A stretch of DNA of 64,000 nt from assembly GCA_963731585.1 (NCBI GenBank), contig CAVSWC010000013.1:188003-252002 (forward strand), in the 5' to 3' direction. The position numbers and the translations under genes were made by a program. Source of the stretch: an uncultured Alphaproteobacteria bacterium. Its GTDB lineage: Bacteria; Pseudomonadota; Alphaproteobacteria; Rhizobiales; Xanthobacteraceae. Shown piece by piece: positions 32,421-32,563 of this stretch. Every line of letters starts with the position of its first letter. Within the stretch, counting starts at the first letter, position 1. The notes under the pieces were generated by a model. The model made no database searches, was not told the DNA's origin, and saw only the letters and a program-made list of their open reading frames with translations.

Positions 32421-32563
32421 GCCTGCTGCTCCTCTCCCCGTGGGGGAGAGGGTTGGGCGTGAGCGGGGATGGGTACCCCTTCGATGGCGGGAACCCCCTC
32501 ACCCGACCGCTCCGCGGTCGACCTCTCCCCGCTGGGGGAGGTGAGAAGAAGAACGGGAGTGAA
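32421..32563. repeat. Family A two-module palindromic element inserted in thiC
   Basis: Read on the coding strand: hairpin CCTCCCC-CAG-CGGGGAGAGG, linker, GGGTGAGGGGGTT, an 18-nt spacer, CCCCGCTCACGCC, then hairpin CCCTCTCCCCC-ACG-GGGAGAGG. Confidence 0.85.

Follow-up and report, generated by a model that had tools for sequence, protein, structure and literature searches.

Does the palindromic repeat that lies inside thiC of this uncultured alphaproteobacterium truncate the ThiC enzyme, or is the stop codon that it appears to bring an artefact of the sequence? In the initial annotation of the 64-kb stretch of DNA analysed here (the window), the repeat was described as a complete two-module element with a single in-frame TGA. 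Three explanations for the stop were left side by side: a dead thiC, errors in the sequence, or tolerance of the element in some other way. We examined the gene and its element, their counterparts in related genomes and the state of the reading frames across the window.

A palindromic repeat in the inter-domain linker of ThiC

The thiC gene reads on the minus strand from an ATG at 32933 to a TGA at 30856-30858. As sequenced it is not one uninterrupted frame, being broken by the in-frame TGA and by at least five single-base frameshifts. The frame-stitched protein matches PF01964 over profile positions 1-419 of 420 (8.4e-184) and PF13667 at residues 19-90 (2.6e-23), and its comparison with PDB 3EPM (Caulobacter ThiC) gives 1e-290. 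The N-terminal ThiC-associated domain (PF13667) is seen in proteobacterial ThiC. Near its C-terminus the stitched protein also has the iron-sulfur cluster motif CX2CX4C (about 31085-31098). Ahead of the gene lies an intact TPP riboswitch that matches the full length of the model (RF00059); such a riboswitch in the leader is usual for bacterial thiC. As first annotated, the ORFs 32499-33020 and 31680-32357 belong to one minus-strand frame (33020-32357 = 663 = 3 x 221). The features of the gene and of the insert are given below, where L084 and L085 are two relatives that carry the same element.

30856-32933, minus strand: thiC (phosphomethylpyrimidine synthase), identified by Pfam on the frame-stitched protein, PDB and tblastn
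33085-33219, minus strand: TPP riboswitch in the thiC leader (Rfam RF00059; score 62.2 bits, gathering threshold 54.3)
32400-32564, minus strand: ThiC inter-domain linker with the repeat element, 165 nt against 18 nt (LDGKPV-type) in most relatives
32521-32542, minus strand: hairpin 1 of module 1, ACCTCCCCC-AGC-GGGGAGAGGT, its left arm without the T found in orthologous copies
32504-32520, minus strand: hairpin 2 of module 1, CGACCGC-GGA-GCGGTCG, the same as in L084 and L085 except for the loop
32494-32504, minus strand: G-rich box GGGTGAGGGGG, which contains the TGA at 32499-32501
32455-32468, minus strand: inverted C-rich partner box of module 2, CCCCGCTCACGCCC
32431-32452, minus strand: hairpin 3 of module 2, CCCTCTCCCC-CAC-GGGGAGAGG
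32400-32430, minus strand: 3′ tail of the insert, AGCAGCAGGCCTGAGCAAGCCCCATCCCATC, one G short of the consensus GAGAGGGAGCAG

The insert is flanked by ...NTPKPWRA, the conserved tail after PF13667, and by TQYEWARAG, with PF01964 beginning at TQYEW. The linker corresponds to about residues 121-129 of Caulobacter ThiC, which aligns via residues 13-120 and 130-582. The placement of the two domains and this alignment therefore put the insert in the inter-domain linker.

Along thiC, hairpins 1 and 2 are followed by the G-rich box; a spacer separates this box from the inverted C-rich box, after which comes hairpin 3. In sequence, GGGTGAGGGGG and CCCCCTCACCCC form an inverted pair, and hairpins 1 and 3 stand in direct orientation. 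The minimum-free-energy fold consists of local hairpins, not of one long hairpin, and the element is strongly structured (z = -2.8). The pattern GGGGAGAGG-N17-GGGTGAGGGGG has a chance expectation of 0.02, and CCTCTCCCC-N3-GGGGAGAGG occurs twice against 0.05 expected. With its motifs above chance and the same layout elsewhere in the window, the segment is indeed a complete two-module repeat copy. Translation of frame 0 across the 165 nt likewise bore out the initial statement that the only stop in the thiC frame is the TGA of GGGTGAGGGGG (32499-32501). Also as stated there, neither of the other frames has a stop within 32421-32563; frame +1 closes just beyond, at a TGA (32417-32419). TIRs or a TSD could not be made out at the thiC copy, where the boundary is blurred by a flank (CCCATCACCC, 32396-32405) that looks like the box of the element itself. 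An Rfam search over the element at a permissive threshold returned only sub-threshold, chance-level matches (whalefall-1 and miRNA models). The whalefall-1 match covers hairpins 1 and 2 (32495-32544; score 19 bits, gathering threshold 37, E = 0.012) and probably reflects nothing beyond a shared hairpin-pair shape.

Further copies of the repeat family lie elsewhere in the window:

63210-63361, plus strand: intergenic two-module copy of the same family as the thiC element, with the same module order
49727-49785, 50121-50169 and 50190-50248, plus strand: single modules on either side of a DUF559 ORF
61394-61541, minus strand: two-module variant with box GGGTGGGGGG, within the Hydantoinase_B domain of an oxoprolinase-like gene

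The family thus shows one hallmark of REPs, namely short imperfect palindromes in many copies (three hairpins in thiC, the further copies in the window, and those in relatives). The copy in the oxoprolinase gene preserves the frame, as the initial annotation had proposed: the insert at 61394-61541 is in frame and stop-free, and the PF02538 match is split there into two stretches. Its box is GGGTGGGGGG, and therefore no TGA arises in any frame. The oxoprolinase/hydantoinase A+B gene itself (60081-63212, minus strand) has two frameshifts, at about 62174 and about 60674. The DUF559 ORF (49783-50049; PF04480, 5e-35) is the only gene in the 64-kb window seen to be bracketed by modules of the thiC-element family. 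It stops at a TGA exactly at the conserved Trp of DUF559 proteins, and its frame runs on as NHDVLQNIDGVLETI. A link between DUF559 genes and the repeat family may merit a genome-wide look.

The element and its site in related genomes

The same element occurs at the same site of thiC in L084 (an NCBI MAG, GCA_035652315.1), L085 (a JGI contig, Ga0082335), L025 and L081, and all four copies are open. The cores of L084 and L085 are about 95% identical to the window element. They read ...GERSTA(M/K)RSGEGVPA..., with PSPPRGEGA downstream, which corresponds to the +1 frame of the window (...PSPPRGE), open across the core. The G-rich box is read as GGT-GAG-GGG (Gly-Glu-Gly) in L084, L085, L025 and the database entry P0002. 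Compared with L084 and L085, the window deviates at three features that are otherwise conserved: it lacks a T in an arm of hairpin 1, has two extra G that break the C-rich box (CCCC[G]CTCAC[G]CCC against CCCCCTCACCCC) and lacks one G in GAGAGGGAG. CCCCCTCACCCC is conserved in L084, L085, L025, L081 and the window copy at 50121.

Restoring the missing G of GAGAGGGAGCAG gives a tail that matches P0019 (...PSPPGGEGAGISKPHPLTQLEW). Restoring the T of hairpin 1 was also tried as a repair; alone, it does not yield the frame of the orthologues. P0002 and P0123 read hairpin 1 as GEVD, like frame 0 of the window, and their hairpin 2 has 19 nt, which brings the box into the GEG phase. In the window the GEVD phase goes together with a hairpin 2 of 17 nt, and the TGA comes into frame in this pairing alone. 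The element has no unique repair, since two or more changes, or a chimeric 5′ junction, would have to be invoked. Natural copies also differ from one another by small indels.

We then compared the linker itself. A scan of one genome per species yielded MAGs of Pseudolabrys and other Xanthobacteraceae, none of which exceeded 85% amino-acid identity to the window. The linker has 6-8 residues, typically LDGKPV, in 58 of 71 related thiC loci. In ten scanned loci with longer linkers these are recognisable repeat elements, all of them multiples of three and stop-free. The segment of the window is thus an insertion into thiC, as annotated, most relatives having a linker of six residues. Complete inserts at exactly this site were found in 12 DNA loci of relatives; as 12/12 are in frame, with lengths that are multiples of three, and free of stops, the suggestion that selection preserves the frame holds. 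Of the related ThiC proteins in the databases, 136 cover the linker, and 45 of these (about a third) have inserts of more than eight residues. At least five repeat families occupy the linker among related database proteins:

Family of the window and its sibling: ...SPLPxGERS...GEG...PSPxPSPxxGEG; PLEGGGR...ADPPPPGEG
CGTC-tagged family: REPGIQ...RRPGMT
GTAG-tagged family: SPDGAQRNPG
Additional family: HSRESGNP...LGPRLRGDER
Class of short decayed remnants

In a distance clustering of thiC, insert alleles are scattered among empty ones (UPGMA on 1.5 kb, where recombination is possible). They share only two flanking nucleotide states, at -4 and +2. A shared haplotype derived from one ancestral insertion was rejected as the sole cause, given this scatter and a flank association confined to -4 and +2. 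Differing inserts are present in P0121, P0122, P0123 and P0129, the N-domains of which are 90-97% identical to that of the window. The largest insert seen is in L085 (JGI Ga0082335_1003396), where two related elements in tandem add about 107 residues and leave the ORF intact. The linker of L024 reads ITPSDRHPI, and that of L034 reads ITPS[26-codon element]DRHPI. This looks like an empty and filled pair or a precise excision, which would define the boundaries of that element.

Tentatively, and as a possibility that we hold less likely than its opposite, the six-codon ThiC linker could be a true insertion hotspot and not just the sole tolerated site, with unrelated REP-type families inserting, stacking in tandem, replacing one another and decaying there. 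The box-like flank CCCC(C/A)TCACCC, common to all insert alleles, might act as the lure. A true hotspot would make the linker a hypervariable translated loop in an essential enzyme, differing even between near-identical strains, and would offer a natural system for the target choice of REP/REPIN-like elements and for the absorption of inserts by proteins. In the literature searched, we found no report of this ThiC linker site or of the number of families that use it.

Frame breaks in thiC and the status of the stop codon

In the initial annotation the TGA appeared as the sole disruption of thiC. That picture proved incomplete, as at least five frameshifts follow in the gene and frameshifts are widespread in the window. 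Those in thiC are the following:

32200, minus strand: window-specific extra base, CATCA[T]TCCCG, which moves thiC from frame 0 to +1 (alignment with nine relatives)
31657, minus strand: window-specific extra base, GGCGAC[G]GGC, which shifts the thiC frame again
30907-31020, minus strand: three more frame changes in the variable C-terminal region of thiC, among them an extra base at 30917 and the run GGGG[C]ATG (30940-30951)

The single extra bases at 32200, 31657 and 30917 are found only in the window when it is aligned with the nine relatives, and the frame changes twice more in the stretch from about 31000 to 30940. With relatives' ThiC as query, tblastn splits the gene into three HSPs, each in a different frame. 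An extra hairpin-like segment, CTCCCTCCCCCTCGTGGAGGAGCGAG, occupies 30954-31020 in the C-terminal variable region, and most relatives lack it. It may be a second small insertion site in thiC, and the three frame changes cluster there.

Across the 64 kb, a codon-usage Viterbi pass detected about 20-25 direct same-strand frame switches (examples are at 6082, 13319, 25369, 33666, 48582, 49541 and 53657). Frameshifted conserved genes include pyrD, metF (about 49541), metH (about 53657) and those for a glycosyltransferase, a TctC-family receptor, a TetR regulator and an ArsR-methyltransferase. When stitched, the MetH activation domain gives one continuous PF02965 match (2.8e-91) across the frameshift. 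The same is true of MetF (PF02219, 8e-94), the glycosyltransferase (PF00534) and the TctC-family receptor (PF03401), and stitched oxoprolinase matches PF02538 across its frameshift with 7.5e-194. The error rate was gauged with the short-read contig L082 (6.6 kb), which covers window positions 4216-10945 and not thiC; it is 97% identical to the window there, with UbiX 100% identical, and lacks the extra pyrD base at 6082. Upstream of pyrD, a 167-nt segment at 6546-6716 with long inverted termini (CTAGTGTTCCGAATCCAAA...TTTGGATTCGTCGAACACTAG) is absent from L082 and looks like a polymorphic MITE-like insertion.

We next compared the stitched protein with its relatives. Once the two extra bases in the core are removed, the repaired ThiC departs by a single Leu-to-Val change from the 293 columns in which 70 relatives show no variation. 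In a leave-one-out control the number of such changes averaged 0.54 and reached at most 6, so the one conservative change lies within the control range and the relaxed selection at conserved positions that marks a pseudogene is not seen. By our own estimate of about ten substitutions per indel, five to seven neutral indels in thiC would bring tens of substitutions, with roughly 20 changes at invariant columns. A deletion bias has been reported for real bacterial pseudogenes. The indels in thiC and in other genes, together with the unaltered ThiC columns and the pyrD of L082, therefore indicate that the sequence is error-prone. As constraint is not relaxed and the indels are of insertion type, the frameshifts in the thiC core are taken as errors, and the TGA is judged in that light: we regard all the frame breaks of thiC as sequence errors.

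As to their source, the window's UbiX is 100% identical in megahit assemblies, and the exact protein is also encoded on an 850,482-nt NCBI/ENA contig, which suggests a long-read MAG. ThiC ORFs on other long MAG contigs (P0138, P0148, P0201, P0209 and P0220) are frameshifted near the linker without carrying an insert. Indels are denser in thiC (5-7 in 2.1 kb) than in the window on average (about 1 per 3 kb), and this excess may reflect a consensus that is poor or chimeric where co-occurring strains differ.

Taken together, we think it likely that a REP-like element occupies a permissive, recurrently used linker of ThiC, that selection keeps it there as an in-frame loop, and that the TGA of the window is an artefact and not a truncation. 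Of the three explanations offered at the outset, sequence error is thus the one favoured by the window-wide indels, the constraint on ThiC and the phase of the orthologues. The artefact reading has a cost: within the element it calls for two indels or more, or else for a chimeric junction. All identifiable errors in thiC are insertions, and the simplest repairs of the element also need deletions.

The strongest competitor is a real TGA, to which we assign a small though appreciable probability. The element or a later indel would then truncate ThiC after its N-terminal domain, and the gene would be a very recent pseudogene in a cell that needs external thiamine or HMP. Thiamine auxotrophy is common in soil bacteria, element copies evolve by small indels, and disruptions are more frequent in thiC than elsewhere in the window. 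As sequenced, the TGA is in frame, and the stretch from there to TQYEW offers no ATG, GTG or TTG for a restart. An exact flank-gap-flank pattern search of metagenome contigs gave no same-strain sequence across the element, so that a real, very recent out-of-phase allele is conceivable, if improbable. Exact-protein look-ups with the thiC N-fragment, the downstream small ORF and ORF 43195-44004 found no match (UbiX alone did), and a protein search aimed at the 3′ junction of the insert found no same-species fragment. A pseudogene is at odds, however, with the single change among 293 invariant columns, with the intact TPP riboswitch and with the open frame of every orthologous element copy. The placeable thiC indels are moreover 1-nt insertions as in metH, metF and pyrD, which fits error better than the deletion bias of pseudogenes. 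The proposal that thiC is dead here is thus not supported: selection is not relaxed, 1-nt indels are many throughout the window and the orthologous copies are open.

That the TGA is real but tolerated seems very unlikely. This would require read-through or recoding, a ribosomal frameshift in the hairpins, or a two-polypeptide ThiC made of N-domain and core. The strong structure of the element and the two other open frames across it would suit such mechanisms, and plant ThiC, in which the N-terminal domain is missing (match from query residue 230), hints that the core might work alone. However, no start codon or restart signal precedes the core, no recoding RNA family was matched (Antizyme_FSE reached 13 bits against 40), and TGA ends thiC itself and other window genes. 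None of these mechanisms would rescue the frameshifts further downstream in the catalytic core. An alternative genetic code with TGA as a sense codon was considered and rejected, since TGA terminates thiC and 5 of 17 long ORFs.

Least credible of all is that the segment is an ancestral, lineage-specific ThiC linker or an element misassembled into this place. The linker is of low complexity and variable in length among relatives, but it has 6-8 residues in 58 of 71 aligned relatives with insert alleles scattered among them, and the same family is found between genes and in another gene of the window, the oxoprolinase gene, which refutes an ancestral linker; an assembly chimera in a locus free of the element is refuted by independent NCBI, ENA and JGI assemblies with the same element at the same site (L084, L085, L025 and L081).

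Proposed origin, known repeats and implications

In the explanation we prefer, that of an in-frame insert with an artefactual stop, a non-autonomous REP-like palindromic repeat sits in the six-codon linker between the N-terminal ThiC-associated domain and the radical-SAM core. The linker would be a permissive and repeated landing site in Pseudolabrys and other Xanthobacteraceae, used by several families. Selection would retain only alleles with a length that is a multiple of three and with no stop, so the element would be translated as an extra loop of 20-107 residues rich in Gly, Pro, Ser, Glu and Arg, as predicted from the reading frames. The element would be selfish passenger DNA that needs no function of its own. 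The loop would be tolerated structurally; an AlphaFold model of a ThiC fragment with an insert (P0002, 28 sequences) was too poor for use, with a mean pLDDT of 39. In the window, the core of the element is out of phase with its flanks and therefore reads GGG-TGA-GGG where the orthologues read GGT-GAG-GGG. This phase shift would go back to minor indel errors, or to a consensus chimeric between strains, in a metagenome assembly that is error-prone and probably built from long reads.

Rickettsia palindromic elements are palindromic repeats of about 100-150 bp that form several families, lie in frame in unrelated metabolic genes and are translated, apparently with the protein still able to function (PMC10969869, PMC3733652). 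The window resembles them in its repeats of in-frame length in thiC and the oxoprolinase gene. By the same measure, the relatives' inserts are in frame and open in 12 of 12 cases, and the window copy is a multiple of three in length but contains a stop. Unlike in Rickettsia, the host of the window is a free-living member of the Xanthobacteraceae with about 64% GC, the repeats belong to other sequence families, many families in many lineages share one six-codon linker of ThiC, and translation of the inserts is a prediction. Given the Xanthobacteraceae-like host, the window element is therefore an analogue of Rickettsia palindromic elements and not a member.

REPs that lie wholly within ORFs encode 20-80 residues in "REP-decorated" proteins (Di Nocera et al. 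2013, PMC3733652), and REP families have been described in Bradyrhizobium and Rhodopseudomonas palustris (PMC3733652). Among relatives, the thiC inserts of L046 (CGTAGCCCGG) and L015 (TCGTCATTCCGG) begin with the tags of the GTAG and CGTC REP superfamilies, whereas the family of the window, with CCTCTCCCC/GGGGAGAGG hairpins and a GGGTGAGGGGG box, has neither terminal tag. Both thiC and oxoprolinase are absent from the supplementary lists of Di Nocera et al. (PMC3733652). REPINs, which are mobilised by RAYT transposases, have been described as extragenic (Bertels and Rainey 2011, PMC3116915). A cognate RAYT is an IS200/IS605-like tyrosine transposase with the repeats on either side. The window element is similar to them in its two modules with the boxes GGGTGAGGGGG and CCCCCTCACCCC inverted across a short spacer, and in being multi-copy, hairpin-forming and non-autonomous; it differs in that its thiC copy is intragenic. 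ERIC, BOX and Anabaena MITEs are small non-coding mobile DNAs that make in-frame gene fusions (reviewed in PMC10969869). Like these, the window element is a small piece of mobile DNA inside a gene, to which it is predicted to add a peptide segment; unlike in MITEs, no TIR or TSD can be defined at the thiC copy. REP decoration of proteins is thus already known, and the part worth following up is the recurrent use of one ThiC linker by multiple families, which seems to be unreported.

The insertion in thiC is real, in frame by its length and part of a widespread pattern under selection. Its stop codon, and with it the seeming truncation of ThiC, most probably arose as an artefact because the assembly is unpolished. 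For annotation, this means that thiC should not be called a pseudogene from the TGA at 32499-32501, and that readings based on ORFs anywhere in the window, the assembly of which looks unpolished, should allow for single-base indels. Several short-read contigs ended inside the element. At GC-rich hairpin repeats within genes the consensus of long reads breaks down, as does the assembly of short reads, so an insert of this kind can readily pass for gene decay. On the evidence of the sequences compared here, the thiC locus would show clearly that essential genes can harbour palindromic repeats as translated loops in bacteria other than Rickettsia. With one linker and many repeat families, it may allow compact tests of how targets are chosen, how selection acts on the reading frame and how much added peptide an enzyme linker tolerates.
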